Shown here piece by piece: positions 32,580-62,568 of a stretch of 64,000 bases of DNA (the first letter of the stretch is position 1; each line of letters begins with the position of its first letter). This stretch comes from Clostridia bacterium (GTDB taxonomy: Bacteria; CBDUZB01; JAGLHV01): assembly GCA_030637025.1 (NCBI GenBank), contig DAOVVV010000005.1:1-64000 (forward strand), given 5' to 3'. The notes beneath the pieces are model-generated. The model was not told the DNA's origin and searched no databases. It saw nothing but the letters and a program-made list of their open reading frames with translations. The position numbers were made by a program, and so were the translations under genes.

Positions 32580-34865
32580 ATGATAAAATTTATTAAAAAA
32601 AGATATTTTATATTGATTCTTTTATTATTTCTGTTAATGTCTATTCCTCTGATAAACGCAGATTTACCCTTTCTTAATAGTGATAGTTCTTTTTATGTAA
32701 TATTGGCTCATTCAATTAGTTCCGGCGAGGGATACAAAGATATTTATTATCCGGGAAATCCTTCAAATGTGGAATTTCCCTTTTTTTATCCTTTACTTTT
32801 GGCGATATTTTTAAAAATTTATCCGGAAAATTATGTGGTTTTTTTAAAATTTCTTTCTATCCTGTTTGGAATAGCTTCATTAGTTGTTGTGCAAATTTTC
32901 TTTTCTAACAAGGTTAAAACGCAAACTATAAAAACCGGACCTTTTACTTCCGAGCATGTACCCCTAATTGCTTTATTTATCTCTGTTAATTTATGGTTTT
33001 TATCCTTTTCCACAAGCATTCTTCCTGAAATACCTTATTTGTTTTTTTCTTTTACGTCTTTAATTTTATTAAATAAATATGAACAAAGCAGTAAAAATTC
33101 AGGTAAATATTTTTTATTTACTGCACTTAGTTTAACTGTAACTTTTTTTACCCGTTCAATAGGGTTAGCTTTGATTATGGCGGCAATAATTTATTTTATA
33201 ATTATAAAAAGAAAAAAAAGGAAAGGATTTTATATCGGGGGTATATGCATTTTTTTATCTTTGCCCTGGCTGATGAGGACAATATTAATTTCTTCTGCGA
33301 CAATTTCTAAAAATTATGTAGGCCAATTTATGCACGGTCATAACGAATCGTCCATAAAAATACTAAAAGCAATAGTATGGAATTTAACCCACTATTGGCA
33401 GTTAATTTCAACCCTGCTCCTGCCGGGATTTTTTCTTTCAAAATTAAGCGAGGAAATGAGTTATTTCCCCTTTTTATGTGGATTAATTAATAAAAAAATA
33501 AAATATTTCAGTTTTAGTCCTTTGCCCTGGCTGTCTGCCTTTCTAGCTTTTACTCTTTTTGCTATTGTCGTAGCAGGTTTTATTTACCATTTTAAAAAAA
33601 GAAAATTAAGCGAAATTTATATATTATGCTATTTAAGTATAGTCTTTATTTTTCCCTCCCGGTTTTTTCAAGAGAGTGGAAATAGATTTATTACGCCCAT
33701 ACTTCCTTTCATATTGTTTTATTTTTTTACAGGATTATTTTTGTTGGTTAATTTGTTTAAGTCCTCAGGAGAAGATGTAAAAGAAAAACAGGGAACGAAA
33801 AAAAACAAAAGGGTGGCGGTAATCAAAATTCTTGTTTGTCTTTTTGTGTTAATAGCCAATCTTATTCCTGTTTCGAGATTGATAAAAGCTAATGTAAAAT
33901 ATCTTATAAATTATAAATTTTTATCACTTGAACAAAGAAAGGATTACTATCCTTCCTGGTTTATGGACCGTTTCATAGTTGCTTATTGGATAAAAAATAA
34001 TACTTCTCCCGATAGTATTTTTATGCATGATTATCCTCCTCCTTTTTATTTGGTTACGGGACGTAAAACAGTTTATTTTACCAAAACCCCCTGCCCGGAA
34101 AGAGAAATGAAATTAGTGGAAATTGCTAATACTATAAAACAAAAAGGAGTTAATTATATTGTTACCCTCACTCCCCATGAAGAGAAAATAGTCAGGCAGT
34201 TAAATCAACAAATAGAGGATATGATTTTTTTCCCTTTAGTTCGCTTTGAATCTATAGATGAAATAATTAAAATATATAAAGTGAGTAAAATTAATCCACA
34301 GGCAAAAACATTAAATCAAGAGGGGATTGATTGGTATCATAAGAGAAATTTTAACAAAGCGAGAGAGGGATTTAAAAAAGCGATAGCAATAAATGCTCAT
34401 CCTCTGGAATATTTCAATTTAGGCCAGTGTTATGAAAGAGAAGGGGAAAAAGACAGAGCTATTTTTGCTTATGAAAATGCGGCTAAAATGCAATTCAATT
34501 ATAAAATGGTAAAGGATAAAATAGAGATAGTTAAACAGCAGGAAAGGATAGAAAATAACCCGTTTTCGTATGAAGAATATTTGGTATTGGGAAAGTTATA
34601 TTTGAAAAATTATAAAGCTATAGATTTGACTATATATTTTTTTAGAAAAGCTTTAATTTTGAATCCTGAGAGTGCCCTTGTTCATTATAATCTTGGCCGT
34701 GCTTATATTATTGATGAGGCTTATGATGCTGCTTTGAGTGAACTTAAAATATCGCTTAAATTAAAACCGGAGTTAAAACATAAAGTAAAACATTATATGC
34801 AAATAGCCGGTCAGAAAAAGAAGGAAAAACAGTTATCTTATCTGGGAAGAGAGCATCTACAATGA
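32580..34865 (+). CDS. GT-C membrane glycosyltransferase + TPR (family A)
   Basis: DSSFYVILAHSISSGEGYKDIYYPGNP..EFPFFYPLLLA; TPRs. ATG 32580 matches the paralog start MIEFIKKKY; the ORF track starts at GTG 32565. Confidence 0.8.
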   Translation: MIKFIKKRYFILILLLFLLMSIPLINADLPFLNSDSSFYVILAHSISSGEGYKDIYYPGNPSNVEFPFFYPLLLAIFLKIYPENYVVFLKFLSILFGIASLVVVQIFFSNKVKTQTIKTGPFTSEHVPLIALFISVNLWFLSFSTSILPEIPYLFFSFTSLILLNKYEQSSKNSGKYFLFTALSLTVTFFTRSIGLALIMAAIIYFIIIKRKKRKGFYIGGICIFLSLPWLMRTILISSATISKNYVGQFMHGHNESSIKILKAIVWNLTHYWQLISTLLLPGFFLSKLSEEMSYFPFLCGLINKKIKYFSFSPLPWLSAFLAFTLFAIVVAGFIYHFKKRKLSEIYILCYLSIVFIFPSRFFQESGNRFITPILPFILFYFFTGLFLLVNLFKSSGEDVKEKQGTKKNKRVAVIKILVCLFVLIANLIPVSRLIKANVKYLINYKFLSLEQRKDYYPSWFMDRFIVAYWIKNNTSPDSIFMHDYPPPFYLVTGRKTVYFTKTPCPEREMKLVEIANTIKQKGVNYIVTLTPHEEKIVRQLNQQIEDMIFFPLVRFESIDEIIKIYKVSKINPQAKTLNQEGIDWYHKRNFNKAREGFKKAIAINAHPLEYFNLGQCYEREGEKDRAIFAYENAAKMQFNYKMVKDKIEIVKQQERIENNPFSYEEYLVLGKLYLKNYKAIDLTIYFFRKALILNPESALVHYNLGRAYIIDEAYDAALSELKISLKLKPELKHKVKHYMQIAGQKKKEKQLSYLGREHLQ

Positions 34866-36949
34866 AAAATTACTTAAAAGTAGGGGCCTTTATGTTCTTG
34901 TTATTTTATTGGAACGTTTCTTTTATTGGGGCAAAAGAACACAATAAGCGTATAATGAAAAAAATTATTAAACTTGCACAAAAAAGCCAGGCAATGGATA
35001 CTGCTATTATTAAAAGAATGCGGTTTGATTTGTTAGAAGAACAAATTATTCTTGATGGCTCAACAGAGAAATGTTTGCTGAAGGATAATAGCAATATTGG
35101 TGTATGGTTGTTTAAGAGTTATACTAATCCAAAAAAAGTAATAATATCCAGAAGTGTATATCTTTTAGCTAAGTTGACGGGTATTTCTACTCCACTGATT
35201 TATGAAATCACTCTTCCTGTTAACGGGAAAATGGTTTATGGTTCAATTCAGGAATTTATTCTGGGAGCCAAAAAAGTAAAAGAGATGAAACTTTCTGAAT
35301 TTAGTGATAAACAAATTGCAGAAATTAAGAGGTGCCAAATTTTTAGTTGGTTAATTTTTAATAAAGATTCCGGACAAAAGCATCTTATTGTTCATCCGGA
35401 AACAAAAGAAATTTTTACTATAGATAACGATAACTCTTTAGTATTTAGAAGGAGATGGTCAATAGAAAAGCATCTATTTGGTAAATTTGATAAGGTTTGG
35501 AATGCTGATACAGGAAATAGAAGAGTATTTGAGTTAAAAGAAATTCTTAGTTTCATTGATTATCTACAAAGTATTGATAACAAGGAATTAAAAAAAATAC
35601 TTTTATTAGTTATCAATAAGCCTGAACAAATGAACGAGTTTTTTTTGAGAAAAGAAAATTTGAAAAGTGATTTTATAAGGTTTTACTGCAAATTAAAAAA
35701 ATCACCAAAAAGGTTATCCGATGAGGCGAGTAAGGGTAATGGCGAAGAGTATGCAAGGTTAATTTTAAAAGAACTAAAAGCTTCCATCTTAAAAAAAAAG
35801 CAGTTGCTTAAAAATTTAAAAAGTAAACCATTAACAAAACAAAAGGATATTAAAGTTATTTCTTCAAAAGAGGCCTGGATTAAAGCAAGAAAATTAAGTT
35901 ATTCTTCGAATAAAGAGTTTTTAAATTATCTAAAAAAGGCGACTGAAACATTAAAATATCTGGAAAACAGTAATTTAAATATTTATGAAAGATTAGCGGT
36001 AAATTTATATACAGAAGAAATTGCAAGAGAATCTATGGAAGGAAAGATAGATAGGTTTATAAACAGGAAGGGAATTAAAAGGATTAGTATTCATCCAGTA
36101 CGAATGACAGCTAAAAAAATATTGAATATAGAATATAATTTGAGGGCTATATGCGGGAAAAAGAGAAAATCATTTTCCGAATATAAAAAAGAATTGGCAA
36201 ATGATAAGGAAAATATTTTGTTACATCTCAATTATATTAAGTATCCCCCACAAACTACTCAGGCAATAAATGAGGTTTTAGAAGAATATCAACAAAAAAT
36301 AAAGAAAGAAGGAAATATTAAAGTAAATGACTTTATTTGTAAAATAACGCAGAGAGACGAAAAATACCTTAACAATGTGGACGACAGCTTTACCTGGAAA
36401 TATTTAGGGTTAGCTTTGGTAAATGCGTATCGTAAGCGCAAAAATAAAGCAATTGGATGTTGTAATAAATCAGTTGCTTTAACTAAGGATAATTTTGTTG
36501 TTTATTGGAGTTATTTACTATTGGGACTTCTTTATGAATATAACGACTCTTGGGAAAGATTTGGTGAAGGATTTAAAAGGGAAAAATCCGTTAAGGCCTA
36601 TAAAAAGGCAGTAATGATTAATCCTGAGTCGGTAGAAGCGCATTTGAACTTAGGAATTATTTATTTGATAAATAAAGAGCCGGACAAAGTTTTAGAGGAG
36701 TTTAAGCAAGTAGACAGATTAGATGTTAAATATGGAAAAAAGCATTTTCATTTTAGCAAGATAAAAGAGAAATATGAATATAAAAGTAAAGAGAAATATT
36801 TAGAAGCAATAAAGATGAATACTTTGAGTGGTAGACATCATTATGTGGTAGGCCTGGCTTATATGGTAAATAATGATGTAAAAAGAGCAAAGCAACATTT
36901 TAATAAAGCAAAAGAATTTGGTTATAAAGTTAATGTTAGAGTGGAATAA
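34862..36949 (+). CDS. Signal peptide + atypical kinase-like + TPR protein, array gene 1
   Basis: LDGSTEKCL, WLFK, YGSIQEFI, WLIFNKDSGQKHL, FTIDND, MNTLSGRHHY; ATGA overlap with the upstream GT-C gene. Confidence 0.82.
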   Translation: MKNYLKVGAFMFLLFYWNVSFIGAKEHNKRIMKKIIKLAQKSQAMDTAIIKRMRFDLLEEQIILDGSTEKCLLKDNSNIGVWLFKSYTNPKKVIISRSVYLLAKLTGISTPLIYEITLPVNGKMVYGSIQEFILGAKKVKEMKLSEFSDKQIAEIKRCQIFSWLIFNKDSGQKHLIVHPETKEIFTIDNDNSLVFRRRWSIEKHLFGKFDKVWNADTGNRRVFELKEILSFIDYLQSIDNKELKKILLLVINKPEQMNEFFLRKENLKSDFIRFYCKLKKSPKRLSDEASKGNGEEYARLILKELKASILKKKQLLKNLKSKPLTKQKDIKVISSKEAWIKARKLSYSSNKEFLNYLKKATETLKYLENSNLNIYERLAVNLYTEEIARESMEGKIDRFINRKGIKRISIHPVRMTAKKILNIEYNLRAICGKKRKSFSEYKKELANDKENILLHLNYIKYPPQTTQAINEVLEEYQQKIKKEGNIKVNDFICKITQRDEKYLNNVDDSFTWKYLGLALVNAYRKRKNKAIGCCNKSVALTKDNFVVYWSYLLLGLLYEYNDSWERFGEGFKREKSVKAYKKAVMINPESVEAHLNLGIIYLINKEPDKVLEEFKQVDRLDVKYGKKHFHFSKIKEKYEYKSKEKYLEAIKMNTLSGRHHYVVGLAYMVNNDVKRAKQHFNKAKEFGYKVNVRVE

Positions 36950-36985
36950 AATGTGGGGATGTGGCAAAATAATGGGAGTAAACTA

Positions 36986-39900
36986 ATGAGGATTAAAGAA
37001 AAATGTTTTTTAATTGTTTTTATAATAGCTACATTGGTTTTTTTTAATTTTCCTGTAAGTGCAAAATCATTGAAGGCAGATATTGTCCGAGTGTTTGATG
37101 AAAACCGGAAATTGGATGCCCGGATAGTTAAAGAAATGAATTTTAAATTGGCTAAAGAACAGGATGTAGGAGGAAACACTGAAAAATATCTCCTGGAAGG
37201 GAAAGACGGCAATAAATGGATTTTTAAAATTTATAGGACTCCTTCTACGGTAAAAAGTTCAAGGGTTGTTTATAGATTATCCACTTTTTTTGGTATTAAA
37301 ACCCCTCCTGTTTATGAAATTGAATTATTGATAAATACAAAACCAGAGTATGGATCGCTTCAAAAAATGTTACAGGATGTTAAAGTGTGGAAGAGTAGTT
37401 TTTTGGCTAATATTTCGCCCGGACAAATAATATCTTTTCAGAAACAACAGGTATTGGATTGGCTTATTTATAATGGGGAAGTGGAGAGCGAAGAATTTTT
37501 ATTAGACACAAAAACCGGTGAAATTATTCCTATTGATAGAGATGAAGTTTTTTGTACTGAACGTTATGAAAAAGTAAAACTACCCGGTAAAGACCCTGAT
37601 ATGTTTTGGTATAATAAATTTTTTAAAAATCTGTATCGAAATAATAGGGAAATAGATTGTACCGCTGTTTTTGAAATGATTGATTATATACAATCAACGG
37701 AGGATAAACTAATAAAAAATATATTCGAAGAGATATTTGAAAAAGGGGCGGATTATTTCTGGCGGAGATTTTTAGTCAAGAAGAATAATTTGCGTAGTGA
37801 TTTTGAAAAATTTTATCAGGAATTATCTTTTACAACAGAAAAAAACATTCTTATTCCTCCCCGGACGGTAAATAACAGTTATGTAAAGACGGTTTTAGAA
37901 AATATGAAAAAAGAGATTTTAGACAAAAATAAAAGTCTTGGATGGATAAAATTAAACAGCATTAAAAGGCAGGAAAATATAGAAGTGATTTCTTCTAAAA
38001 GATCATGGCATTTGATCTATTATAATCTAAAATATGTACCGGAATATGAATTGTTATCACGGGCAGAAGAAATTAATAAAAAACTGGAAAAACTAAAAAA
38101 TGAAACCGGGGATGTTTATGAAAAATGTGCCATAAATTTGTATATTAATCAGATTGAAAAGATTAAGAAACTTTATGAAGGGAAAAATATTGATAAACAA
38201 GAGGCCTCATTTAAAAGGATTACAATCCATCCTCTGTCAGATAAATTATTTGATTTGGGATATAAAGAGGTTTCACTCTCGCAGCCGCAAGCGGGAAATA
38301 AATGTAAATATGATAAAAAAAGATTAATGAATGAACTCATTTGTAATTTTAAAGAAATCCGGAAATTAGATAAGCAGATTATAAAAAAATTACGATTTGA
38401 ATTATGTGAAAATCAATATTTAGGAGGAAGTACCCAGAAATATTTATTCAAAAGTAATAGTGGGGATTTGTGGCTGTTTAAAACATACTCTTCTCCGAAA
38501 AAGGTGAAAATATCAAGGACTATATATCTTTTATCTCAATTATTAGGTGTGTCTACCCCGGTGGTTTATGAAATTAGTTTGCCGGTTAACGGAAAATTAT
38601 GCTATGGGGCAATTCAAAAATTTATTGCCGGAGGTATACAAATTGTTAAAGCGATGATTGAAAAATTAAGTGATGAGCAGATTAACGAAGTACAAAATCA
38701 TTGGGTTTTTGATTGGTTAGTTTTTAATAGTGACCCCTCACCGGAACACTTTCTGCTTGAGCCAAAAACAAAAGAAATCATTGCCATAGACAAAGATTCA
38801 TCGTTATATGATATGAAGTTGATTTTTCCGGATAAAAACCCGTGGAAGAAGGCACATTACTCTAAATTTCGGAAAGCATACATAAATAACAAAATTAATA
38901 TTGATTTTGAAGAAACTTTTAATTTTATTGATTATATACAAAGTATAGAAAAAAGTGAATTAAGGGAAATTCTTTTACCGGTATTGGAGAAAGATGAATT
39001 AATAGATAAGTTTTTTTTGAGGAGGGCAAATTTAAAGAGTCATTTCGAAAAATTGTATTATGAATTATCAGTGTTACGAGGCGAACAGTTTCAAATGGCA
39101 GGTAATAGTAATAAGTCATTACATTTAATATCGGTTCTGGAAAAAATCAAAAATATTGTTTTAGAAAAAAGACAGTTACTCGAAAACTTGAAATCTCAAA
39201 AGAAAACAAAACAAAGTAATATTATAGCCCTTTCTTCCAGCCAGACATGGTCTATGGTGAGTAAATTCAACGGATCTTTGCGAAGACTTTTTTCCTTAAA
39301 TGTTAAAAAGAGCCTGGATAAATTAGAATATTTAGAAAGTGAGGCTTTAAATATATATGAAAAATTAGCTATAAATTTATATATAGAAGAAATTAGAAGG
39401 ATTTCCACGGAAAGAGACATAGAAAATTTTTTGCAGAGAAAAATTAAAATGATTTCAATGCATCCCGGGCAAATAACGGATAAAAAAATATTAAACAGAG
39501 AATATATATTCCGGGTTACATACGGGAAAAGTAAAAAATCGCCTGAGGTATATAAAAGGAAATTAGAAGCAGACAGCACGGATGTTTTATCACATTTTGA
39601 GTATATTCAATATCCGGTGAGGGGTAATGATAAAGGAGGAGTGTCGATTTTAAAAGAGTATGAAAAGTGGGTAGAGAAAGATCCGGAAAACTTGATGTAT
39701 AAACTCTTTTATGGAATAGTATCAAATGATTTAAATTATCTTAAAAGAATGGAAGATAATTTAAATTTGAAATATTTAGGAATGGCTTTAATACAGAGTT
39801 TTGCAAAGGACAGAGACGAAATAGTCAAATATTGCAATAAAGCAATTATTTTAAATAAAGGCGGCTATATTGCCTATTGGAGTTATATGTTATTAGGGTT

Positions 39901-40339
39901 GCTTTATGAATACGGGGACGGATGGAGGAGATTTGGGGAAGGTTTTGAATTAGAAAAATCTATTATAGCTTATAGGAACGCAGTAATGATTGACCCTGAA
40001 TCGGTGAAAGCACACTTGAATTTAGGCACGCTTTATTTAATAAAAGGAGAAGCGGATAATGCTTTGAATCAATTTAAGGAAGCAGATGAATTAGATTCTA
40101 AATACGGGAAGAAACATTTTTATTTTGATAAAATAAAAAGGAGAGATTTATACGAAAATAAAGAGGCATACCTGGAAGCAATAAAAATGAATACACTCTC
40201 CGGTCGACATCATTATGTCTTGGGACTGGCTTATTTAGTAAAAGGGAATACAAAAAAAACGAAACAACATTTTAATAAGGTAAAGGAATTTGGTTATAAA
40301 ATTGATGCAAAATTAAAAAAATATTTTAAGGATAAATAA
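36986..40339 (+). CDS. Signal peptide + two kinase-like domains + TPR, array gene 2
   Basis: Domain 1: VGGNTEKY/WIFK/YGSLQ/DWLIYNGE/PIDRD. Domain 2: LGGSTQKY/WLFK/YGAIQ/DWLVFNSD/AIDKD. ATG 36986 follows GGGAG; the ORF track starts at 36953. Confidence 0.82.
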   Translation: MRIKEKCFLIVFIIATLVFFNFPVSAKSLKADIVRVFDENRKLDARIVKEMNFKLAKEQDVGGNTEKYLLEGKDGNKWIFKIYRTPSTVKSSRVVYRLSTFFGIKTPPVYEIELLINTKPEYGSLQKMLQDVKVWKSSFLANISPGQIISFQKQQVLDWLIYNGEVESEEFLLDTKTGEIIPIDRDEVFCTERYEKVKLPGKDPDMFWYNKFFKNLYRNNREIDCTAVFEMIDYIQSTEDKLIKNIFEEIFEKGADYFWRRFLVKKNNLRSDFEKFYQELSFTTEKNILIPPRTVNNSYVKTVLENMKKEILDKNKSLGWIKLNSIKRQENIEVISSKRSWHLIYYNLKYVPEYELLSRAEEINKKLEKLKNETGDVYEKCAINLYINQIEKIKKLYEGKNIDKQEASFKRITIHPLSDKLFDLGYKEVSLSQPQAGNKCKYDKKRLMNELICNFKEIRKLDKQIIKKLRFELCENQYLGGSTQKYLFKSNSGDLWLFKTYSSPKKVKISRTIYLLSQLLGVSTPVVYEISLPVNGKLCYGAIQKFIAGGIQIVKAMIEKLSDEQINEVQNHWVFDWLVFNSDPSPEHFLLEPKTKEIIAIDKDSSLYDMKLIFPDKNPWKKAHYSKFRKAYINNKINIDFEETFNFIDYIQSIEKSELREILLPVLEKDELIDKFFLRRANLKSHFEKLYYELSVLRGEQFQMAGNSNKSLHLISVLEKIKNIVLEKRQLLENLKSQKKTKQSNIIALSSSQTWSMVSKFNGSLRRLFSLNVKKSLDKLEYLESEALNIYEKLAINLYIEEIRRISTERDIENFLQRKIKMISMHPGQITDKKILNREYIFRVTYGKSKKSPEVYKRKLEADSTDVLSHFEYIQYPVRGNDKGGVSILKEYEKWVEKDPENLMYKLFYGIVSNDLNYLKRMEDNLNLKYLGMALIQSFAKDRDEIVKYCNKAIILNKGGYIAYWSYMLLGLLYEYGDGWRRFGEGFELEKSIIAYRNAVMIDPESVKAHLNLGTLYLIKGEADNALNQFKEADELDSKYGKKHFYFDKIKRRDLYENKEAYLEAIKMNTLSGRHHYVLGLAYLVKGNTKKTKQHFNKVKEFGYKIDAKLKKYFKDK

Positions 40340-40349
40340 ATCAATTTAA

Positions 40350-40443
40350 TTCAATGAGGCTTAGAGCTTTTTCAGCTATACTGATAAAACTCTGTAGTCG
40401 AATTTATCCTGAGCACTTTGCTTTGTTCAGCGGAGTCGAATGG
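40350..40443. repeat. Palindromic intergenic repeat, family B (partial, degenerate)
   Basis: TTCAATGAGGCTTAGAG..CAG..CTG..AAAACTCTGTAGTCGAATTTATCCTGAG matches 58205-58270, followed by AGCGGAGTCGAATGG. Confidence 0.7.
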
Positions 40444-40462
40444 TTTAGGAATGGGGAAAGTT

Positions 40463-42550
40463 ATGGTTTTTAAGTTAAAAAAACGTATTAGGAAAAGATA
40501 TTTTTTATTTGGCTTATGTATGGTTTCATTTATTTTGCCGGTAAATGCAAAACCGGTAATGAAAGAGATTTTCCAAAGCTTTAAAGAAAGTCAAAAGTTA
40601 GATAAAAAAATTCTAAAAAAATTACGATTTGAATTAAGTGAAAATCAGAATTTAGGAGGAAGTACTCAAAAGTATTTATTGAGAAGCGGTAATAATGATT
40701 TATGGCTATTTAAAGTATATCCGGATTCAAAAAATAAAAGAATGAAAGTCTCCAGATGTGTTTATCTTCTGGCACAATTATCAGGTGTTTCGACACCGGA
40801 AGTTTACGAAATTAATTTACCGGTTAATGGAAAATTATACAATGGAGCAATTCAAAAATTTATTTCCGGAGGCAAAGAACTTTCGGGTGTTAAAATTGAT
40901 GAATTGAGCAAAACACAGATTCGGAATATACAAATCCATCAAATTTTCGATTGGTGGCTTTTTAATAAAGATTCATCAGCAGAACATTTTATCATTGAGC
41001 CGAAAACGAAAGAAATTATTACAATAGATAAAGATTTATCTTTGCATAATATGCGGTTTGTTTATCCGGAGAAAGATTTCTGTAATGATACATATTATAT
41101 GAATTTTTGGAGAATGCATGTAAATAGTAAAATCAATATTGATTTTAAAGAAGTTTTTAATCTTATTGAACACATTCAAAGTATAGAGAATAATGAACTA
41201 AGAAAAATACTTTTACCGGTACTGGATAAAGATGAATTAATGGATAAGTTTTTTTTACGGAAAAAGAATCTAAGAAGCCATTTTGAAAAGTTTTATAGAA
41301 ATCTGTCAATGCTGAGAGGAGAGCAATTTTTTGAGATGGGCAAGGTAGATAAAAAAGCGTATTCAGAATCGGTTTTGAAAAAAATAAAAAATATTGTTTT
41401 GGAAAAAAGACAAATACTTGGAAATTTGAAAGGTAAAAAGGCAAAACAAAATAATATTATAGCGGTTTCGTCAAAAGATGCGTGGGGTATAATAAATGAA
41501 TTAAATTGTTTTTATAAGGCAGAATATTTATTTCATATTAAAAAAGTAATAGAAAAGCTACAACGTTTGGAAAGGGGCGATGTAAATGGTTATGAAAAGT
41601 TAGCGATAAATTTATATATTGAAGAGGTTAGAAGAACATATATAAAGCAGGATATAGAAAGTTTTCCTGCAAGAAAAGAAATTATATTGATTACATTAAA
41701 TCCGAATCAGATAAATGACAGGAAAATATTTGATTTAGAATATAATTTTAGAGCAATATACAGGGAAAAGAAAAAACCGCTGTCAGAATATAAAAAGAAG
41801 TTTGTAGAGAATCATGAAAATATTTTCCTACATTTAGATAGTGTTTTGCATTCTGTCAGGAGAAATGACCGGGCAGGAGAACCACTTTTAAAAGAGTATA
41901 AAAAATACACGGAAAATGACCCGGTGCAGTTAACACATGAAGTTTTATATGGGATACTATTAAGAGATTTGAATTATCTTGAAAAAATAAATGATAACAC
42001 CGGTTTGAAATATTTAGGAATGTCATTAGTCTGGAGTTTTGAAAATGAAAAGGATGAAATAGTTAAAAATTGCAATAAGGCAATCAGCCGAAATAAAAAT
42101 AATTTTATTGCCTATAAAAGCTATATGTTATTGGGATTGATTTACGAGTACAATAACCAGGGGAAAAGATTTGGAGAGGGGTTCCGGATAGAAAAATCTA
42201 TTGTAGCTTATAAAAAAGCAGTAAAGATTAATCGGGAATCGGTTAAAGCACATTTAAATTTAGGAATTCTCTATCTAATAAAAGAAGAACCGGATAAAGC
42301 TTTGCATCAATTTAAGAAAGCGGATAAATTAGATTCTGAATACGGTGAGAAACATTTTCATTTTGACCAAATAAAAAGGAAAGATTTATACGGGAATAAG
42401 AAAGAATACCTGGAAGCAATAAAAATGAATACGCTTTCCGGAAGACATCATTATGTGTTAGGCCTGGCTTATTTGGTAAAAGGGGACAAAAACTCTGCAC
42501 AAAAACATTTTGAAAAGGCCGGTGAATTTGGATATAAAAAAGGAAGTTAA
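40463..42550 (+). CDS. Kinase-like + TPR protein, array gene 3
   Basis: Signal ..ILPVNA; LGGSTQKYL, WLFK, GAIQKFI, DWWLFNKDSSAEHF, TIDKD. The ORF-track TTG at 40418 lies inside the repeat; ATG 40451 or 40463 is more likely. Confidence 0.82.
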   Translation: MVFKLKKRIRKRYFLFGLCMVSFILPVNAKPVMKEIFQSFKESQKLDKKILKKLRFELSENQNLGGSTQKYLLRSGNNDLWLFKVYPDSKNKRMKVSRCVYLLAQLSGVSTPEVYEINLPVNGKLYNGAIQKFISGGKELSGVKIDELSKTQIRNIQIHQIFDWWLFNKDSSAEHFIIEPKTKEIITIDKDLSLHNMRFVYPEKDFCNDTYYMNFWRMHVNSKINIDFKEVFNLIEHIQSIENNELRKILLPVLDKDELMDKFFLRKKNLRSHFEKFYRNLSMLRGEQFFEMGKVDKKAYSESVLKKIKNIVLEKRQILGNLKGKKAKQNNIIAVSSKDAWGIINELNCFYKAEYLFHIKKVIEKLQRLERGDVNGYEKLAINLYIEEVRRTYIKQDIESFPARKEIILITLNPNQINDRKIFDLEYNFRAIYREKKKPLSEYKKKFVENHENIFLHLDSVLHSVRRNDRAGEPLLKEYKKYTENDPVQLTHEVLYGILLRDLNYLEKINDNTGLKYLGMSLVWSFENEKDEIVKNCNKAISRNKNNFIAYKSYMLLGLIYEYNNQGKRFGEGFRIEKSIVAYKKAVKINRESVKAHLNLGILYLIKEEPDKALHQFKKADKLDSEYGEKHFHFDQIKRKDLYGNKKEYLEAIKMNTLSGRHHYVLGLAYLVKGDKNSAQKHFEKAGEFGYKKGS

Positions 42551-42551
42551 A

Positions 42552-46846: not shown

Positions 46847-46915
46847 ATAATGTTCGGATAGATAAGATTAGGTTTGAATTCTTTAATGATTGTAAGGATC
46901 AACAGGGGTAAAATA

Positions 46916-49190: not shown

Positions 49191-49216
49191 CTTATGTTAA
49201 AGTAAAGGAGGATAAC

Positions 49217-51379: not shown

Positions 51380-51389
51380 AGGGCATACT

Positions 51390-53540
51390 ATGTTGGTTAA
51401 AAGGCAGGGGTTAACAAGGAAAAATGTTTTTTTTGTAGTGATATTAATATATCTGGCTATTGCTTGCCTTAATTTGGATCTATATGCTTATTCCGCCGTT
51501 AATGAAATTATTAAACTGGAAAAAGAAAAGCAAAAGTTAAATGAAGAAATTATTAATAGCTTGAATCTCAGATTTAGTAAACGAAGAAAGGTTAATTTCT
51601 ATGGAGAAAATTATAAATGTTTTTTAAAGGACAGGGAATCAGATGATTTATGGTTATTTAAAATATATAAATCTTCCTTTCCGGCAAATGCTACAGTGGC
51701 AACTTACCGGTTGGCAGAGTTATTAGGATTGGATGTTCCGGACATTGCCGGGATTACTTTGATTATTAATGAACAGGAAAGATACGGTTCAATTCAAAAA
51801 ATGATACCCGGTGTGAAAAGAATTGATAAGATACCGCTTAGTCAATTATCTTCTAAACAAGTAGAGTCTATAATGAAAAATCATGTACTGGATTGGCTGG
51901 TATTTAATAGTGATATGGACAACGATGAGTTTCTTATAGAGGAAAAAACGGGCAGGGTTATAGCCATTGATAAGGATAAAACCTTTTCTGACGAAGAAAA
52001 AACAGTTTTGTTGGAACAAAAGAGGGGAAAGGATTTTTATTGTCATGATTTTTGGGGTGCTTATTTGAAGGGGGAAATAATTGTTAAAAATGTTAGTTTT
52101 AAGAAAGTGTTCGAATTGATAGATTGTTTTCAAAGAATTGATGATGAGGATATAATAAATATATTAGATGATTTGTTAAGCGAGGTAATGAGTCCCGGCG
52201 AATATAATTCGATACTAAAAGCAATAATTTTAAAAAAGCATAATTTGAGGAGGGATTTTGAAAAGTTTTATAAAAAGTTAACAAAAAATAAAGGTTTTTC
52301 TTTTAGTGCCCCTTCTATAGATAAAGATAATACTTATGCCCAATTTGTCCTGGACAAATTAAAGGAAAATATTTATCAGAAAAAATCTACACTTGCCCGG
52401 CTGAAAATCAGAAAATTAAAGAAACAGGAAAAGATGAAAATAATAGCTTGTTTTGAGGTAATGTCTTTAGTGAATGAACTAAGATTTGTCCGCAAAGAAG
52501 AATTTTTTTCTTTATCAAACCTGATTATTAAAAAAATAGATTGTTTAAAGAAAAAAAAAGGTTCTGTTTATGAGCAATTTGTTATGGATTTATATATCGA
52601 ACAGATTAGAGATTTTCAAAATAGGAGGGGAATGGAAAAAATTATTTCAAGCAGGATAAAACAGATTGTTTTCTGTTTGGAAGAAATGACTAATAACAAA
52701 ATATTAAGGATAGAACATCATTTAAGAGTTATTTATGGCCAACCACAGAAAAAACCCGGATATGATAGAAAAGAAATTGAGAGAAAACCAGGGGATATTT
52801 TAGTACATTTAGACTATATTCAATGCCCTGTAAAAGGGGATTTAAATGCAGAGGAGGAACTGATTTTAAAAAAATATAAAGAGTGGGTAAATAAATATCC
52901 GTCGGATTTAACCTGTCAGGTTCTTTATGGAATAGTATCAAATAATGAAGAGTATCTAAAAGGGATAGAAGATAGTTTTGCCTGGAAACATTTGGGATTG
53001 GCATTAATTTATAGTTTTGGGAAAAAGAGAGGGAAGGCAATAAAAGAATGTAAGAAGGCTTTAATTTGTAAAAATGAAGGGGAAAGTACTTTTTGTGCCT
53101 TTATGCTTTTAGGGTTTCTTTATGAATATAAAAGTAAATGGGAAAGGTTTGAAGAAGGATTGGATATAAAAAAAGCTGTAGAAGTTTATAAAAAAGCTGT
53201 TAAATTTAATCCCGAATCGGTAAAGGCTCACTTGAATCTGGGTGTTCTTTATTTAATGTCGGAAAAGCCGGATAAAGCTTTGGAAGAATTTAAAGAAGTA
53301 AATAGATTAGATTTTCAATACGGAAAAAAACATTTTAATCTGGATAAAATAAATAAAAAGAGTTCGTATCGAAATAAGAAAGAATATTTAGAGGCAATAA
53401 GGATGAATACTCTTTCCGGAAGGCATCATTATATATTGGGTTTAGCATATTTAATAAAAGAGGATAAGAATCTGGCGCAAAGACATTTTAATAAAGCAAA
53501 AGAATTTGGATATAATAGATTAAAAAAGATAGGAAATTAG
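51390..53540 (+). CDS. Kinase-like + TPR protein, array gene 8 (closest to gene 7)
   Basis: YGENYKC, WLFK, YGSIQ, DWLVFNSDMDNDEFL, AIDKD. ATG 51390 preferred over TTG 51342. Confidence 0.82.
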   Translation: MLVKRQGLTRKNVFFVVILIYLAIACLNLDLYAYSAVNEIIKLEKEKQKLNEEIINSLNLRFSKRRKVNFYGENYKCFLKDRESDDLWLFKIYKSSFPANATVATYRLAELLGLDVPDIAGITLIINEQERYGSIQKMIPGVKRIDKIPLSQLSSKQVESIMKNHVLDWLVFNSDMDNDEFLIEEKTGRVIAIDKDKTFSDEEKTVLLEQKRGKDFYCHDFWGAYLKGEIIVKNVSFKKVFELIDCFQRIDDEDIINILDDLLSEVMSPGEYNSILKAIILKKHNLRRDFEKFYKKLTKNKGFSFSAPSIDKDNTYAQFVLDKLKENIYQKKSTLARLKIRKLKKQEKMKIIACFEVMSLVNELRFVRKEEFFSLSNLIIKKIDCLKKKKGSVYEQFVMDLYIEQIRDFQNRRGMEKIISSRIKQIVFCLEEMTNNKILRIEHHLRVIYGQPQKKPGYDRKEIERKPGDILVHLDYIQCPVKGDLNAEEELILKKYKEWVNKYPSDLTCQVLYGIVSNNEEYLKGIEDSFAWKHLGLALIYSFGKKRGKAIKECKKALICKNEGESTFCAFMLLGFLYEYKSKWERFEEGLDIKKAVEVYKKAVKFNPESVKAHLNLGVLYLMSEKPDKALEEFKEVNRLDFQYGKKHFNLDKINKKSSYRNKKEYLEAIRMNTLSGRHHYILGLAYLIKEDKNLAQRHFNKAKEFGYNRLKKIGN

Positions 53541-53545
53541 GAAAA

Positions 53546-53894
53546 ATGGGTTTTAATATAAATAATAAATCCGGATTTAGCAGAGTTACATCTCAATCTT
53601 GTTAATCTTTATTTAATCAAAAATTCACCTAAAAAGGAGTTAAAAGAGTTTAGGAATGCAGAAAGATTAAATTTTCGATGTGCGAAAGAACAGTTTTATC
53701 TGTATAAAATAAAGAAGAAGAGTTTATATAGAAATAAAAAGGAATATCCGGAGGCTATAAGAATGAATACCCTTTTCGGAAAAGATTATTATATCATGGT
53801 TATGGCTTGCATGGTAAAAGGAGATAAAGTTTCCGCAGAAAAGCATTTTGATAAATTTCTCTAGTTTGGGTATAAAAATGGAGGTTTAAAATGA
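53546..53894 (+). pseudogene. Decayed 3' remnant of a kinase-TPR paralog (TPR tail only)
   Basis: Hand translation: GFNI, then a frame change to IINPDLAELHLNLVNLYLIK..EAIRMNTLFGKDYY..AEKHFDKFL*FGYKNGGLK*; internal TAG at 53862-53864. Confidence 0.85.
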
Positions 53895-56059
53895 AAGACA
53901 TTGAATTTAAAAGTACGCTTATTAAAAAGCAATCGTTGAAAAACAAGAAATATTCAACTTTGTTTTTTTTAATGGTGATATGTTTTATCGGAAATTGTTT
54001 TGTTGTAGAATCAAGTGCAATTTCCGTTATAAAAAAAATTATTAAATTAGAAAAAGAAAACCAGGCGTTGAACGAAAAAATTATTACTAAATTAAGGTTT
54101 GAATTATATAAAGATAAGACATTGGGAGGAGAGACTTGTAAATATTTGCTTAGAAATAAAGAATCCGGTGAATTATGGTTATTTAAAAAATATGAATCGC
54201 TTGGTCCGGTGAATAGTACAATAGTGACATATCGGTTAGCTCAGTTATTAGGAGTAGACATATCGGAGATTATCAGGACTGTTTTACCCATTAATGAAAG
54301 AATGCAATATGGTTCAATTCAGAAAATAATACCCGGAGTTAAAAAAATTAACTCTATTCCTTTTAGCCGGTTATCTTCCGAACAAATAACCTCTATAATG
54401 AAAAATCGGGTATTAGACTGGCTCGTTTTTAATAGTGATACGGATAAGGATGAATTTCTTGTGGAAATAGAGACAGGGAAGATTATAGCCATTGATAAAG
54501 ATGAAACCTTTTATGATGAAAAATCAAGCATGTTAACAGATAATACGGAAGGAGATTCTTATTACTATGAATTCTGGGAAGCTTATTCAAAAGGGGAGTT
54601 TATCATTAGCGAAGTTAATTTAAAAGAAATATTTAAGTTGATAGATTATATTCAATGTATTAAGGACAAAGATATAACATATATAATAAACGATTTATTG
54701 AAAAATGTAAAAGATTCTTCTGAGTTAGAGTTCATAATAAAAAGAGTCCTTTCAAGAAAAAATAGTTTAAGAGTAAATTTTAAAAACTTCTATAAAAATT
54801 TATTAGAAAAACAGAATTGTTTTTTTCAAATACCTCTTGTTGATAAGGATAATACTTATGCCCGAACGGTGCTGAAAAGACTGGAAGAAAGTGTTTTTCA
54901 AAAAAAAACAAAACTTGCTCAATTAACATTGATGGAACGTGGAAAACAGGAGACTATCAAAAGAATATCTTGTTCGGATGCCTGGTATTTAATCGAGAGG
55001 TTAAATTATGTCTCCAGAGAAAAATTTTTTTCTTTAGCCGAAGATATTTTTAACAAACTGAATTATTTAAGGAAAAGAGTTCCTTCTGTTTTTGAGAAAT
55101 TTATTATAAACTTGTATCTCGAAAAACTTATAAATATCCAAAATAAAAGAGGAATGGAAAATTTTATCCAAAGAGAAATAAAAGAAATTGTTTTATATCC
55201 TGATCAAATAACAAACAGTAAAATATTAAATATAGAATACAATTTAAAAGCGATTTATGGGGATTCACGGGGAGAATTTAATAAGTATAAAGAAGCTGTT
55301 GTGAATAACCCCCGGAATATTTTATTTCATCTGGATTGTTTTCTCTATCCTATAAAAGATGAAGATTACGGTGAAAGGGATTTAATTGTAAAAGAATATA
55401 AGAAAAGGTTAGAAACAAATCCCGATGATTTAATAGATAAGCTCTTGTATGGCATAGCATTAAGAAATGATCAATATGTTAGGGCAATAGATGGTGATTT
55501 TGCCTGGAAGTATTTAGGATTGTCCTTGATTTATAGTTCTAAAGAAAGAAGAAGAAAAGCAATTGAAGAGTGTAAAAAAACATTACATTTTAAAAAGTCA
55601 AAAAAAATTGCGTATGAGACATATATGTTTTTAGGATTACTTTATGAGCATAATGATAGATGGGAACGGTTTGGAGAATGGTGTGAAGTGGAAAAGGCTT
55701 GTAATGCCTATAAAAAAGCAATTGCAATTAATCCGGAAAATGTTAAAGCTCATTTAAATCTGGGTATTCTTTATTTGATGATGGACCAACCCAACAAAGC
55801 TTTAAAAGAATTTAAAAAGGTAAATAAATTAGATTCACAATATGGAAAAAAACATTTTCATCTGGATAAAATAAATAAAAAAAGTTCGTATAAAAATAAG
55901 AAGGAATATTTAAACGCGGTAAGAATGAATACTCTTTCCGGAAGGAATCATTATATATTGGGTTTAGCATATTTAATAAAAGAGGATAAGAATCTGGCAC
56001 AAAGACATTTTAACAAGGCAAAAGAATTTGGATATATAGAAAAGATTGATCCTGAGTAG
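53891..56059 (+). CDS. Kinase-like + TPR protein, array gene 9
   Basis: RBS GGAGG; LGGETCKYL, WLFK, YGSIQ, DWLVFNSDTDKDEFL, AIDKD. Confidence 0.82.
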   Translation: MKDIEFKSTLIKKQSLKNKKYSTLFFLMVICFIGNCFVVESSAISVIKKIIKLEKENQALNEKIITKLRFELYKDKTLGGETCKYLLRNKESGELWLFKKYESLGPVNSTIVTYRLAQLLGVDISEIIRTVLPINERMQYGSIQKIIPGVKKINSIPFSRLSSEQITSIMKNRVLDWLVFNSDTDKDEFLVEIETGKIIAIDKDETFYDEKSSMLTDNTEGDSYYYEFWEAYSKGEFIISEVNLKEIFKLIDYIQCIKDKDITYIINDLLKNVKDSSELEFIIKRVLSRKNSLRVNFKNFYKNLLEKQNCFFQIPLVDKDNTYARTVLKRLEESVFQKKTKLAQLTLMERGKQETIKRISCSDAWYLIERLNYVSREKFFSLAEDIFNKLNYLRKRVPSVFEKFIINLYLEKLINIQNKRGMENFIQREIKEIVLYPDQITNSKILNIEYNLKAIYGDSRGEFNKYKEAVVNNPRNILFHLDCFLYPIKDEDYGERDLIVKEYKKRLETNPDDLIDKLLYGIALRNDQYVRAIDGDFAWKYLGLSLIYSSKERRRKAIEECKKTLHFKKSKKIAYETYMFLGLLYEHNDRWERFGEWCEVEKACNAYKKAIAINPENVKAHLNLGILYLMMDQPNKALKEFKKVNKLDSQYGKKHFHLDKINKKSSYKNKKEYLNAVRMNTLSGRNHYILGLAYLIKEDKNLAQRHFNKAKEFGYIEKIDPE

Positions 56060-56110
56060 ACCGTAGGGAGTCGAAGGGTCTTGGGGCTCTTGCTGCGCGG
56101 TAGTTGATTT
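56045..56110. repeat. Palindromic repeat, family B (right part)
   Basis: ATTGATCCTGAG..TAGGGAGTCGAAGGG..CTTGCTG..GGTAGTTGATTT matches 58259-58338. Confidence 0.65.
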
Positions 56111-56143
56111 ATTATTAAATAATATAAAGAGGGGATAGAGGGG

Positions 56144-58219: not shown

Positions 58220-58338
58220 AGTTTTTGTCAGCATAGCTGACAAAAACTCTGTAGTCGAATTGATCCTGAGGCTCCCTTATAGGGAGGCGAAAGGTATAGT
58301 GTTTAAGTCCCTGCAGCTTGCTGAGGGGTAGTTGATTT
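58205..58338. repeat. Palindromic repeat, family B (most complete copy), three hairpins
   Basis: Perfect 15-bp stem AGAGTTTTTGTCAGC-ATA-GCTGACAAAAACTCT (58218-58250), CTCCCT-TAT-AGGGAG, CCCTGCAGCTTGCTGAGGG, ending TAGTTGATTT. Confidence 0.75.
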
Positions 58339-58375
58339 GGTCAATAGTTAAAAAAGATGTTTACGGAGATTTACT

Positions 58376-60469: not shown

Positions 60470-60486
60470 TTGGTGGTACTAATTTA

Positions 60487-62568
60487 GTGAAAATAAAAAA
60501 AACATTATTTTTAATACCGGTTATATTTGGAATAATTTATTTTATTTTGAATATAAACGCGGATAATACGATTGACAGGATTATAAAATTTGCGAATGAA
60601 AATCAAAGATTGGATAAAGAAGTTATTAAATTAATGAAATTTAAGTTATCCAAACAGATAAAAAATGTACATAAAATTATTTTAAAAGATGAAGGAAATC
60701 ACTTATGGTTATTTAAAAGTTATAAGTCTTCCAATTCGGTAAATGAGTCTATAGCAGTGTATCAATTAGCTTGTTTATTGGGAATAAATGTTCCTCCCAT
60801 TTATGAAGTCACACTTCCTATCAATGGGAAGATGGTTTATGGTTCAATCCAGAGGTTTATTGATAATGCAGGGATAGTTAGTTATGTTGTCCCCGGAGAA
60901 TTAACAAAAAAACAAATTAAGGATCTGCAACTCCACCAGATTTTAGACTATTATGTTTGTAATCCTGATGTTGGCGGGGATAATTATCTGGTAAAATTGA
61001 AAGGCGGGGATGATTTTCTTTGGGATATAAAAGAAGAAGATATTATAGGGGTGGACAAGGATGATTCTTTCTATAATATATTGAATAGCCCTTATGATAT
61101 CTGGAATGATAATGATCCCTACTATTGCCGTTTTTGGAATGCTTATATAAAAAAAGAGGTAGACATTAATTTTAACGTTGGGTTTCAATTGATAGATTAC
61201 ATTCATAGTCTTGATATAAAAGAAATAGAACAATTACTAAATCCTTTTTTTTATGGCCGGGAAGAATTGTTGAAAGCAGTACTTTTAGCCAGGGGTGAAT
61301 TAAGAGTTGACTTTGAAAAATTTTACCGGGGAGTAGCAAGTAAAAGGGGACTGCGTTTCCGGTTCCGGAGGAATAAGAAGGGTGCGGAAAAATATGCACA
61401 GTTTGTTTTAGAAAAAATGGATAAAATTATTTCCAAAAAAAAGGAATGGCTCAGATATTTAGAAGCTAATCCGGATAAAAAACAAAAAAACATCGAAGTA
61501 ATATTTCACCGGGAGGGATTTGATAAGATAAGAGCATTAGAGTATGTTTCCGGAAACAATATGGTTGTTAGCGCAAGTAAAGTTTTAAACGAACTTAAAA
61601 TGGCAAGAAGTAATAGTCCGAGTCTTTATGAGAAGTTTGCCCTGAGTTTATATATTTATGAGGTAGAAGATATTTTAAGAGAAAGACCTCTTGAGTGTTT
61701 TCTTAAAGAGCCGATAGAAAATATTGCTATGGATCCCGATGATATCGATATTTGTTCCTGGGAGTACAGCCTTCGAACTTTTTATAAATTACCCCGTCGA
61801 ATATCCTGTAAAACTTTAAAAAAAATTGATTATCATTCATGCGATATTTTAAAACATTTAAGTTTTATCCAGTGTCCAATAGATTGGGATGAACGAAAAA
61901 TTATTTTTGACGAATATAAAAAACAAATTGGTTATAATTCGCTGGTTAAGTTTATTGGAGGGATGCTTTTTAATGAAATAACGTACTTTGAAAAAATAGA
62001 TAATTATTTTCCCTGGAAATACTTAGGGAAAGGGATGCTTTATTGGTTGCGTGAGGAGTGGAATGAATCGGTCAGTGAATATCAAAAAGCAATAAAATTA
62101 CATAACGATAAAACAATTAATTTTCTTGGATATCGGATGCTTGGGTTTATTAAGGAGCATAATTCTAAAAGAGTTCGTTTTGGTGAAGGATTTGGTGTAG
62201 AAGAAGCAATTGCCAATTATAGAGAAGCATTGGCAATTAATCCCTGTTCGGTAGAAGTGCAGCTTAATTTAGCAAGTCTATATTTAATTAAGCAATTACC
62301 TCGGAAAGCATTGGAATCGTTTAAAGCAGTGCAAAAATTAGATTTTAAATATGCAGAAGAAAATTTTCATTTTAAAAACATCAAAAAAATGTCTGAATAT
62401 AAAAGCCGGCAGGAATATTCGGAAGCGGTACGGGTGAATACTTTGAGCGGGGAACATCACTATCTGTTAGGGTTGGCCTGTGCAGTAAAAAAACAGAATA
62501 AGCTGGCAAAAAAATATTTTAATCAAGCAAGAGAATTTGGATATAAAGTCGATGTACATTTGAAATGA
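60487..62568 (+). CDS. Kinase-like + TPR protein, array gene 12 (closest to gene 11)
   Basis: Signal ..LNINA; WLFK, YGSIQRFI, DYYVCNPDVGGDNYL, GVDKD; Gly-rich loop absent. Confidence 0.82.
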   Translation: MKIKKTLFLIPVIFGIIYFILNINADNTIDRIIKFANENQRLDKEVIKLMKFKLSKQIKNVHKIILKDEGNHLWLFKSYKSSNSVNESIAVYQLACLLGINVPPIYEVTLPINGKMVYGSIQRFIDNAGIVSYVVPGELTKKQIKDLQLHQILDYYVCNPDVGGDNYLVKLKGGDDFLWDIKEEDIIGVDKDDSFYNILNSPYDIWNDNDPYYCRFWNAYIKKEVDINFNVGFQLIDYIHSLDIKEIEQLLNPFFYGREELLKAVLLARGELRVDFEKFYRGVASKRGLRFRFRRNKKGAEKYAQFVLEKMDKIISKKKEWLRYLEANPDKKQKNIEVIFHREGFDKIRALEYVSGNNMVVSASKVLNELKMARSNSPSLYEKFALSLYIYEVEDILRERPLECFLKEPIENIAMDPDDIDICSWEYSLRTFYKLPRRISCKTLKKIDYHSCDILKHLSFIQCPIDWDERKIIFDEYKKQIGYNSLVKFIGGMLFNEITYFEKIDNYFPWKYLGKGMLYWLREEWNESVSEYQKAIKLHNDKTINFLGYRMLGFIKEHNSKRVRFGEGFGVEEAIANYREALAINPCSVEVQLNLASLYLIKQLPRKALESFKAVQKLDFKYAEENFHFKNIKKMSEYKSRQEYSEAVRVNTLSGEHHYLLGLACAVKKQNKLAKKYFNQAREFGYKVDVHLK

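Follow-up and report, generated by a model that had tools for sequence, protein, structure and literature searches.

The locus described here raises the question of what a bacterium does with twelve tandem genes that annotation recognises only by their tetratricopeptide repeats (TPRs), and that appear to encode exported proteins with a kinase-like domain. The genes lie in a stretch of 64,000 nucleotides (nt) from an uncultured Clostridia bacterium (GenBank assembly GCA_030637025.1, contig DAOVVV010000005.1, positions 1 to 64,000 of the forward strand), referred to below as the window. In eukaryotes, phosphorylation beyond the cytoplasm is an established feature of the secretory pathway; we know of no accepted counterpart in the periplasm of two-membrane bacteria, a compartment thought to be free of ATP. 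The reading towards which we lean, at slightly better than even confidence, is that the array encodes predicted periplasm-facing phosphotransferases of kinase fold, tied to glycosylation by GT-C/TPR proteins and modifying glycoconjugates of the envelope, with most copies catalytically competent. The periplasmic location, catalysis, substrate class and phosphate donor are the predicted parts of this reading, which builds on the paralogy, fold, motifs, export-type N-termini, gene fusion and genomic context of the family.

Tandem array of kinase-TPR paralogs

The array spans positions 34862 to 62568, where an open reading frame (ORF) listing and alignments confirm the twelve consecutive, co-oriented kinase-TPR genes of the original prediction, all on the positive strand. 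The gene products are 691 to 748 amino acids (aa) long, with the exception of gene 2 (1128 aa). All twelve align end to end, with 29–47% identity to gene 1 and a mean pairwise identity of 40% (range 32–66%), and both the alignment and these identity levels indicate homology rather than chance resemblance. A family hidden Markov model (HMM) searched against the 2.36-Mb genome returns 15 matches, 13 of them in the array and the other two being the halves of one further gene. The array consists of the following features:

34862..36949, + strand: paralog 1, 695 aa; signal-like N-terminus, predicted kinase fold at residues ~40–280, helical linker, TPR superhelix at ~432–695
36953..40339, + strand: paralog 2, 1128 aa; domain 2a (Glu at the catalytic Asp), domain 2b (canonical) and one TPR tail; N-domain model with a predicted local distance difference test score (pLDDT) of 84.3
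40418..42550, + strand: paralog 3, 710 aa by longest ORF; true start probably at residue 12 or 16
42510..44756, + strand: paralog 4, 748 aa by longest ORF
44726..46846, + strand: paralog 5, 706 aa; degenerate catalytic loop without Asn/Asp at the NxD positions, candidate pseudokinase
46874..49021, + strand: paralog 6, 715 aa
49148..51379, + strand: paralog 7, 743 aa; recent duplicate of paralog 8 by the tree
51342..53540, + strand: paralog 8, 732 aa
53562..53861, + strand: paralog relic, last ~100 codons of a TPR tail with an in-frame stop near the end
53891..56059, + strand: paralog 9, 722 aa
56144..58219, + strand: paralog 10, 691 aa
58376..60469, + strand: paralog 11, 697 aa; Gly-loop glycines absent, loop Lys kept
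60487..62568, + strand: paralog 12, 693 aa; Gly-loop glycines absent, loop Lys kept

Several of these genes overlap or nearly abut one another, and the membrane-TPR gene before the array (32565–34865) shares the 4 nt at its stop with the start of gene 1. Gene 2 encodes two tandem kinase domains, at window positions 37055–37819 and 38309–39061. The relic occupies the 350-nt gap between genes 8 and 9 and corresponds to a paralog C-terminus, matching gene 8 in BLASTP with 53% identity over 96 aa (E 1e-29); given its in-frame stop, it is a predicted pseudogene and a sign of gene loss within the array. Chance ORFs and misassembly were considered and rejected as origins of the array, the paralogs being too diverged to collapse and the stretch being covered at 95–99% of sampled words in four runs of one study. 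DNA runs in which the stretch was found are labelled as cold seep and marine sediment metagenomes; none of the seven runs listed is of RNA. Between positions 44000 and 63000, neither promoter-like sites (96 vs 96.4 ± 9.9 in shuffles) nor terminator-like sites (12 vs 8.9 ± 3.4) exceed the numbers obtained from shuffled sequence.

Predicted kinase fold of the N-terminal domain

An N-domain of about 250 residues was modelled with AlphaFold2 on a 13-row N-domain alignment (pLDDT 84.3, predicted TM-score (pTM) 0.83). Comparison of this model with the PDB by Foldseek gives 177 matches at E<=0.001; among the matches listed, all are kinases or kinase-like proteins, one of them a pseudokinase, and the best TM-score (0.61) is to PI4KII-alpha. 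VIA-align against 48,161 chains finds 75 chains at Z>=8 with kinases leading, and here too PI4KII-alpha is the best match (Z 16.2, root mean square deviation 3.4, 226 of 251 residues). Further matches are to Hydra Fam20 (Z 14.0), CtkA (13.4), actin-fragmin kinase (12.9), CotH (11.2), HipA (11.1), MavQ (10.9) and HipT (10.7). In a full-length model of gene 1 (pLDDT 81.4, pTM 0.76), residues 40–273 match PI4KII-alpha at Z 14.4, and residues 432–695 match the TPRs of APC, OGT and PilF at Z 10–12.8. On the strength of these models the N-domain is a protein-kinase-like (PKL) fold, and the relation to atypical kinases of the PI4K type II, HipA/CtkA, Fam20 and CotH groups that had been proposed for the array is borne out by the VIA-align matches.

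At the level of family databases, TPR families score above the Pfam cut-offs in all 12 paralogs and no other Pfam family passes its threshold, in keeping with the earlier expectation that automatic pipelines would label these proteins by their TPRs only. HipA_C (PF07804) gives no match at E<=0.1 in any of the 12 paralogs, and no match to the CotH model (PF08757) or to Pfam Fam20 is listed for any of them; the two CotH matches of the genome lie outside the array, on contigs C76 and C5. No NCBIfam kinase family was found among seven window proteins scanned, and PHROGs gave one weak match (E 0.0037) in one of four window domains scanned.

Profile searches of the PDB add links to individual kinases. 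The best matches of the paralog profile are PI4K2B and PI4K2A (E 0.11 to 1.2), and in the alignment to PI4K2B (E 0.11) GSIQ falls on the GSFQ hinge and DWLxxNxD....F on the catalytic loop. A wider profile of 49 sequences has as its best match a Hydra Fam20B-type xylosylkinase (E 0.0081), a weak match of ~48 residues that spans the catalytic loop and the IDKD motif with its metal-binding Asp; PI4K2A (E 0.11) and HipA (E 2) come next. The equivalence of the array motifs with those of named kinase groups, first suggested from the motif order, thus finds support in the alignments to PI4K2B and to the Fam20 xylosylkinase. The paralogs form a previously unnamed family that lies between PI4K type II, Fam20 and HipA/CtkA.

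Conserved motifs and catalytic residues

The paralogs contain, in order, a Gly loop with an invariant Lys, W[LIM]FK, GS[IL]Q, DWLxxNxD....[HEN]F and IDKD. This is the order given in the original prediction, which had also noted correctly that the Gly-loop glycines are missing from genes 11 and 12; both genes keep the loop Lys. The claim that every gene carries the full set stands as regards motif order, but the NxD Asp is not universal, being replaced by Glu in domain 2a and absent from the degenerate loop of gene 5. Key residues are named here Lys44 (loop Lys), Lys58 (the WLFK Lys), Asp142 (the NxD Asp) and Asp161 (the IDKD Asp). The 14 kinase domains of this genome comprise those of the 12 free paralogs, two of them in gene 2, and that of a further copy fused to a GT-C-like membrane protein. 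Asp161 and Lys44 are present in all 14 domains, and Lys58, Asp142 and Asp161 occur together in 11; genes 3, 6 and 9 are examples of canonical paralogs. The variant loop of gene 5 is also found in the orthologs of two sister species (G001 and G003), both of which likewise have the two-domain gene 2. Since the three exceptions are kept in sister-species orthologs, they appear to be selected variants rather than products of decay.

These exceptions bear on the possibility that the proteins are exported pseudokinases or binding modules, with a fold that would bind a nucleotide, sugar phosphate or polyprenyl phosphate without transfer and serve the GT-C/TPR machinery as an adaptor. In 3 of the 14 domains the Lys or the catalytic Asp is replaced in a conserved manner, which is in line with such a role, as is the lack of a known ATP supply in the periplasm. 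A His also takes the place of the catalytic Asp in the copies read from a distant array in genome G316 (see below), and PMC5865150 provides a precedent in Fam20A and other secretory-pathway pseudokinases. However, the full Lys/Asp/Asp set is retained in 11 of the 14 domains despite divergence to ~32% pairwise identity, and the same residues are kept in 80–93% of 215 wider-family domains from the 150 best representatives (Lys58 80%, Asp142 81%, Asp161 93%). A purely non-catalytic family is in our judgement unlikely.

Export-type N-termini and the host envelope

In all 12 paralogs the N-terminus opens with basic residues, after which comes a hydrophobic stretch (best 15-residue Kyte-Doolittle mean 1.62–3.19), and mostly small residues precede the mature part, as judged by eye and hydropathy. 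A twin-arginine (Tat) motif was found in none of the 12 array paralogs. These N-termini are predicted to be Sec-type signals or signal anchors, two alternatives that hydropathy does not tell apart. The host genome encodes BamA, LpxC and three secretins, which together indicate that the host is diderm. A separate tandem array of at least five relatives of 470–490 aa (L030, G316:C167, 8699–17545) is present in G316, a high-GC genome of the sample that does not belong to the window's family. The members of this array carry Tat signal motifs, and in the copies read a His replaces the catalytic-loop Asp.

A thirteenth paralog fused to a putative GT-C-like membrane domain

The further gene detected by the family HMM is a 13th paralog that is split over two contigs, with its 5' part on contig C48 (L008:6168–8396). 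An exact 141-nt overlap joins the end of C48 (L008 8258–8398) to the start of the window (1–141; contig C39). C48 ends in the kinase N-lobe and the window begins in the C-lobe, with family HMM positions 124–252 at window 5–418. The part within the window is as follows:

2..1669, + strand: 3' part of the 13th paralog; end of the kinase domain, helical region, TPR tail

Read across the junction, the protein has a strongly basic N-terminus, a multi-pass membrane domain, at least four TPRs, the kinase domain and the TPR tail. The membrane part has at least nine hydrophobic segments, with a WDD motif after the first, and its nearest ESM Atlas clusters are PMT_2 (0.98) and TMTC_DUF1736 (0.93). It has no Pfam match, no PDB sequence match at E<=1 and no BLASTP similarity to the neighbouring PMT_2/TPR protein. 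Intact orthologs of 1213 and 1249 aa, located at L012 1237–4875 on the minus strand and at L014 3133–6879, are present in the sister species G001 and G003, so that the fusion is conserved in all three array-bearing species. In GT-C enzymes of the PMT_2/TMTC kind, the C-terminal soluble domain is luminal or periplasmic. Because the transmembrane count gave no parity, the side on which the fused kinase lies rests on this GT-C analogy; by it, the kinase domain would face the periplasm and act together with the locus's GT-C/TPR genes.

A periplasm-facing kinase is suggested both by the fusion and by the signal-like N-termini of the 12 unfused paralogs, and the Tat array of G316 adds a third line; the export proposed for the family on first sight is therefore supported from three sides. 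The opposite placement would have cytoplasmic kinases held at the membrane, with the hydrophobic stretch as an uncleaved anchor and the kinase and TPR tail in the cytoplasm, where the ATP that kinases need is available. An anchor of this kind is compatible with the AlphaFold model of gene 1, in which the N-terminus is a single helix. It is not what the N-termini themselves suggest, as the basic residues stand before and not after the hydrophobic stretch in all 12 paralogs and small residues precede the mature part. The fused kinase, moreover, comes after the C-terminal TPR domain of a PMT_2/TMTC-like enzyme, which is generally luminal or periplasmic in that class, and distant relatives bear Tat export signals. 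We regard a cytoplasmic location as very unlikely.

Evolution of the array and the wider family

At phylum level, the collection searched covers this lineage with four species from a single genus, and the kinase family occurs in three of the four; no family member was found in G002, a genome of 89% completeness. A maximum-likelihood tree of 35 domains was built from all matches at E<1e-40 covering >200 profile positions together with seven outside representatives; the split gene, one contig-truncated copy and a broken copy of G001 were left out. At least seven subfamilies can be told apart in the tree, all of them with orthologs from two or three species, and genes 7/8 and genes 11/12 come out as recent duplicates. 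The broken copy is an array member of G001 that is split into two ORFs by a TAG stop or a frame break (L010, G001:C117, 6851–8954). Conservation differs between regions of the protein, with a mean pairwise identity of 58% in the TPR tail (C-terminal part), 46% in the N-lobe, 36% in the C-lobe and 32% in the linkers, a pattern that fits a docking partner shared by all paralogs together with diversified substrate sites.

Beyond the genus, a profile search of 1.84 billion representatives gives 1319 matches at E<=0.001, of which 698 reach E<=1e-10 and 86 reach E<=1e-30, and 9 of 397 sampled genomes outside the genus match the family at E<=1e-5. Among the 150 best representatives, 64 are short proteins with a hydrophobic N-terminus directly before the domain, 66 are at least 1000 aa long and often have two tandem domains, and 20 are of other types. 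Relatives of 1000–7742 aa (P0022–P0147) contain two or three kinase domains, often as an adjacent pair, and some of these giant proteins carry phage MuF, ADP-ribosyltransferase, NUDIX or EamA domains. When 33 relatives were scanned with Pfam, three passed the HipA_C cut-off and two that of PI3_PI4_kinase, while three had MuF and two had ADP-ribosyltransferase. Six close database relatives are without a source name and have TPR-type Pfam families only, except for PF26725 on one. Similarity searches for loci of outside relatives, made with gene 6 among genome contigs and with a sequence alignment among metagenome contigs, returned one TPR-only match and one contig of 1.7 kb, respectively, neither of which supplied independent gene context.

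The giant relatives bring in a different reading, in which the array encodes secreted effectors or toxins. Released from the cell, perhaps by way of a secretin-based system, the kinases would phosphorylate targets in or on another cell, where ATP is available; the TPR tail would bind the target and the array would be the product of an arms-race expansion. CtkA, which is a secreted kinase, is among the structural matches (Z 13.4), the genome encodes three secretins, and the relic at 53562–53861 and the broken copy of G001 are signs of gene birth and death. The same kinase domain is found in phage MuF minor-head fusions (P0092, P0111, P0148) and beside toxin domains of ADP-ribosyltransferase type (P0140, P0148), the proteins that contain it are up to 7742 aa long, and passages of PMC5512222 describe a kinase group in polyvalent proteins. 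The array itself fits this reading less well. In all three species one of the paralogs is joined to a multi-pass membrane domain, which rules out its release, and the subfamilies are old and have one-to-one orthologs, which does not suggest rapid turnover. The TPR tail, presumed in this reading to bind the target, is the most conserved region and not the most variable, and the genes are part of a glycosylation locus, where gene 1 shares 4 nt with a membrane-TPR gene. No secretion-system gene was found in the window. We consider the effector reading unlikely, though it deserves to be taken seriously.

Predicted role in envelope modification

The reading of the array as predicted periplasm-facing phosphotransferases can be laid out as a series of steps. 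The paralogs would be exported to the periplasm of the diderm host, where the kinase domain would bind a nucleotide through the WLFK Lys, the invariant Gly-loop Lys and the metal-binding IDKD Asp. Phosphate would then be passed, via the NxD-loop Asp, to a hydroxyl of an envelope substrate, which may be a glycan, a glycoprotein or a polyprenol-linked intermediate produced by GT-C/TPR transferases encoded in the locus. Each paralog would owe its own substrate to the divergent C-lobe and linker, and the well-conserved TPR tail would dock all of them to one common partner. For the three variants, namely domain 2a, gene 5 and the copy fused to the GT-C-like protein, a regulatory role as pseudokinases in the manner of Fam20A is possible, as is use of the loop Lys in the way of WNK kinases.

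Several observations weigh against this reading. The periplasm is generally regarded as free of ATP, and no gene that would supply a donor was identified. Sequence links to named kinases are weak, the Pfam PI3_PI4_kinase model (PF00454) scoring 15.6–16.6 bits against a cut-off of 27.1 in three of the 12 paralogs, with no match at E<=0.1 in the other nine. AlphaFold draws residues 2–52 of gene 1 as one long helix, and the crude hydropathy count for the fusion, nine segments with some clearly missed, allows no topology parity to be derived. Part of the family may be inactive, given that Glu replaces the catalytic Asp in domain 2a, that the catalytic loop of gene 5 is degenerate and that WLFK reads WLFE (Glu for Lys) in the GT-C-fused copy of all three species. 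Finally, distant relatives occur in phage polyvalent proteins with MuF and ADP-ribosyltransferase domains, a setting of conflict and not of the envelope. On the question of ATP, periplasmic or released ATP has been reported in some bacteria.

A bolder form of the envelope reading, which we offer tentatively as possible rather than probable, is that the array represents a bacterial counterpart of secretory-pathway kinases such as Fam20B and POMK: active periplasmic kinases, coupled physically and genetically to GT-C/TPR glycosyltransferases, that phosphorylate envelope glycoconjugates. Active periplasmic kinases would require a phosphoryl donor not yet recognised in diderms, for which exported ATP and polyphosphate are candidates. 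If active, the family would be a new class of envelope-modifying enzymes with a hidden supply of phosphate donor, and many genes labelled 'TPR protein' would gain a name, the family comprising 1319 representative clusters at E<=0.001. If inactive, it would amount to a large group of pseudokinases secreted by bacteria, likewise something new. With an expanded and conserved family, export-type signals, a fusion to a putative transferase and mostly kept catalytic residues, the question is directly testable.

Comparison with known kinase families

PI4K type II (PI4K2A/PI4K2B; PF00454) is the best structural match and has the same motif order, with the GSxQ hinge and the DxxxxNxD....N/H/E catalytic loop aligned by HMMER. 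However, identity is only 14–17%, and the array proteins differ in their export-type N-terminus and TPR tail. The Cys-rich CC.CC motif, which we take to be the mark of PI4KII, is found in none of the 12 array proteins, and PI4KII, unlike them, is a eukaryotic lipid kinase of the cytosolic face.

Fam20, represented by the Fam20B-type glycosaminoglycan xylosylkinase of Hydra (5xom), is the best PDB sequence match of the wider profile and a structural match at Z 14.0, and like the array proteins in the preferred reading it leaves the cytosol and works beside glycosyltransferases. It differs in being an animal Golgi protein with imported ATP and without a TPR tail, and the array has no Pfam Fam20 match. 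The combination of kinase and pseudokinase is a further likeness according to passages of PMC5865150, in which Hydra Fam20 is described as phosphorylating a Gal-Xyl disaccharide and not proteins.

HipA, HipT and CtkA (PF07804; HipA_2, PF20613) share with the array the fold and a Gly loop ending in a conserved Lys. The HipA_C cut-off is passed by 3 of 15 distant relatives scanned, and HipA_2 is present in 46% of the members of a neighbouring Atlas cluster. HipA-type proteins are, in contrast, cytoplasmic toxins without a signal or TPRs, and the array has no HipB or HipS partner gene. A toxin-antitoxin system of HipBA type was rejected for the array on this ground, its neighbours being paralogs and membrane-TPR genes, and on the lack of a HipA_C match. 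In PMC8262856, the terms signal peptide, TPR, secreted, periplasm, tandem and PI4K are all absent.

The eukaryotic POMT/TMTC enzymes and POMK of the endoplasmic reticulum offer a functional analogy only: a GT-C transferase with luminal TPRs and a kinase-fold enzyme share one non-cytosolic compartment. Here both are even fused in one paralog and the compartment would be the bacterial periplasm; no homology to POMK was found, though no search was aimed at it. Kinases of phage and conjugative polyvalent proteins (Iyer et al. 2017, PMC5512222) resemble the giant members of the wider family found by the HMM, which contain MuF, ADP-ribosyltransferase and NUDIX domains and often two kinase domains in tandem; they differ from the array proteins in having no signal peptide and no TPR tail and in being located in mobile elements. 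This paper distinguishes a separate group of kinases among phage polyvalent proteins; its members have a conserved Gln in the final strand of the N-lobe, comparable to the Gln of GSIQ, and the giant relatives found here probably belong to it.

In the literature, no description was found of an array of signal-kinase-TPR proteins or of a GT-C-kinase fusion; the supplementary family lists of a PKL-survey preprint (10.64898/2026.09.18.752743), KINtaro (PMC10870513) and PMC5512222 could contain the domain. The fold and its chemistry are known, whereas the architecture of a signal, a PI4KII/Fam20/HipA-like kinase, a helical linker and a TPR tail was not found in print. The same holds for the array expansion and GT-C-like fusion of a kinase-TPR family, which is also not named in Pfam, NCBIfam or PHROGs.

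Locus context

Joined to C48, the window forms part of a co-directional locus of >70 kb in all. Every window ORF of at least 100 aa is on the positive strand, except for one 106-aa ORF that lies inside another gene. The array is flanked directly by two membrane protein genes:

32565..34865, + strand: membrane-TPR protein; TPRs only by Pfam, without PMT_2 match; eight hydrophobic segments; overlap of 4 nt with gene 1
62594..64000, + strand: next multi-pass membrane protein, 3' open; eight hydrophobic segments; N-terminal region resembling 32565–34865; no Pfam family found

The first of these is a putative GT-C-like protein by analogy with the PMT_2-positive paralogs of the window. Further genes located 5' of the array encode PMT_2/TPR and membrane/TPR paralogs, asparagine synthase, GT2, GT9, three radical SAM proteins (B12-binding or other), a class IV aminotransferase, a UbiA prenyltransferase and an epimerase. 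C48 extends the locus upstream by at least 8.4 kb, with a VTC-domain gene, a B12-type radical SAM gene, PMT_2, GT2 and polysaccharide deacetylase genes, followed by the fused paralog.

The VTC-domain gene, which is polyphosphate-polymerase-like, stands at the head of the joined locus (L008 168–869). Elsewhere in the genome a DUF4956 gene is located directly before a CotH-kinase gene (G000:C5:59495–61057), and among the control genomes the three species with DUF4956 are also those with CotH. The VTC gene and the DUF4956-CotH pair are leads to a possible link of exported kinase-fold proteins to polyphosphate.

Within the window, positions 14711–22756 encode two radical SAM proteins (one B12-binding), a class IV aminotransferase, UbiA, a PMT_2 protein, an NAD epimerase/dehydratase and a GT2, a sub-cluster that looks like a pathway for an unusual polyprenol-linked sugar. 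A soluble protein of 570 aa without a Pfam family is encoded between GT2 and membrane-TPR genes at 6878–8590. Two adjacent paralogs of ~585 aa with a hydrophobic N-terminus and no assigned family are located at 27501–29261 and 29339–31096, and one of this pair (27501–31096) has a weak match to a transglutaminase core (E 0.0014).

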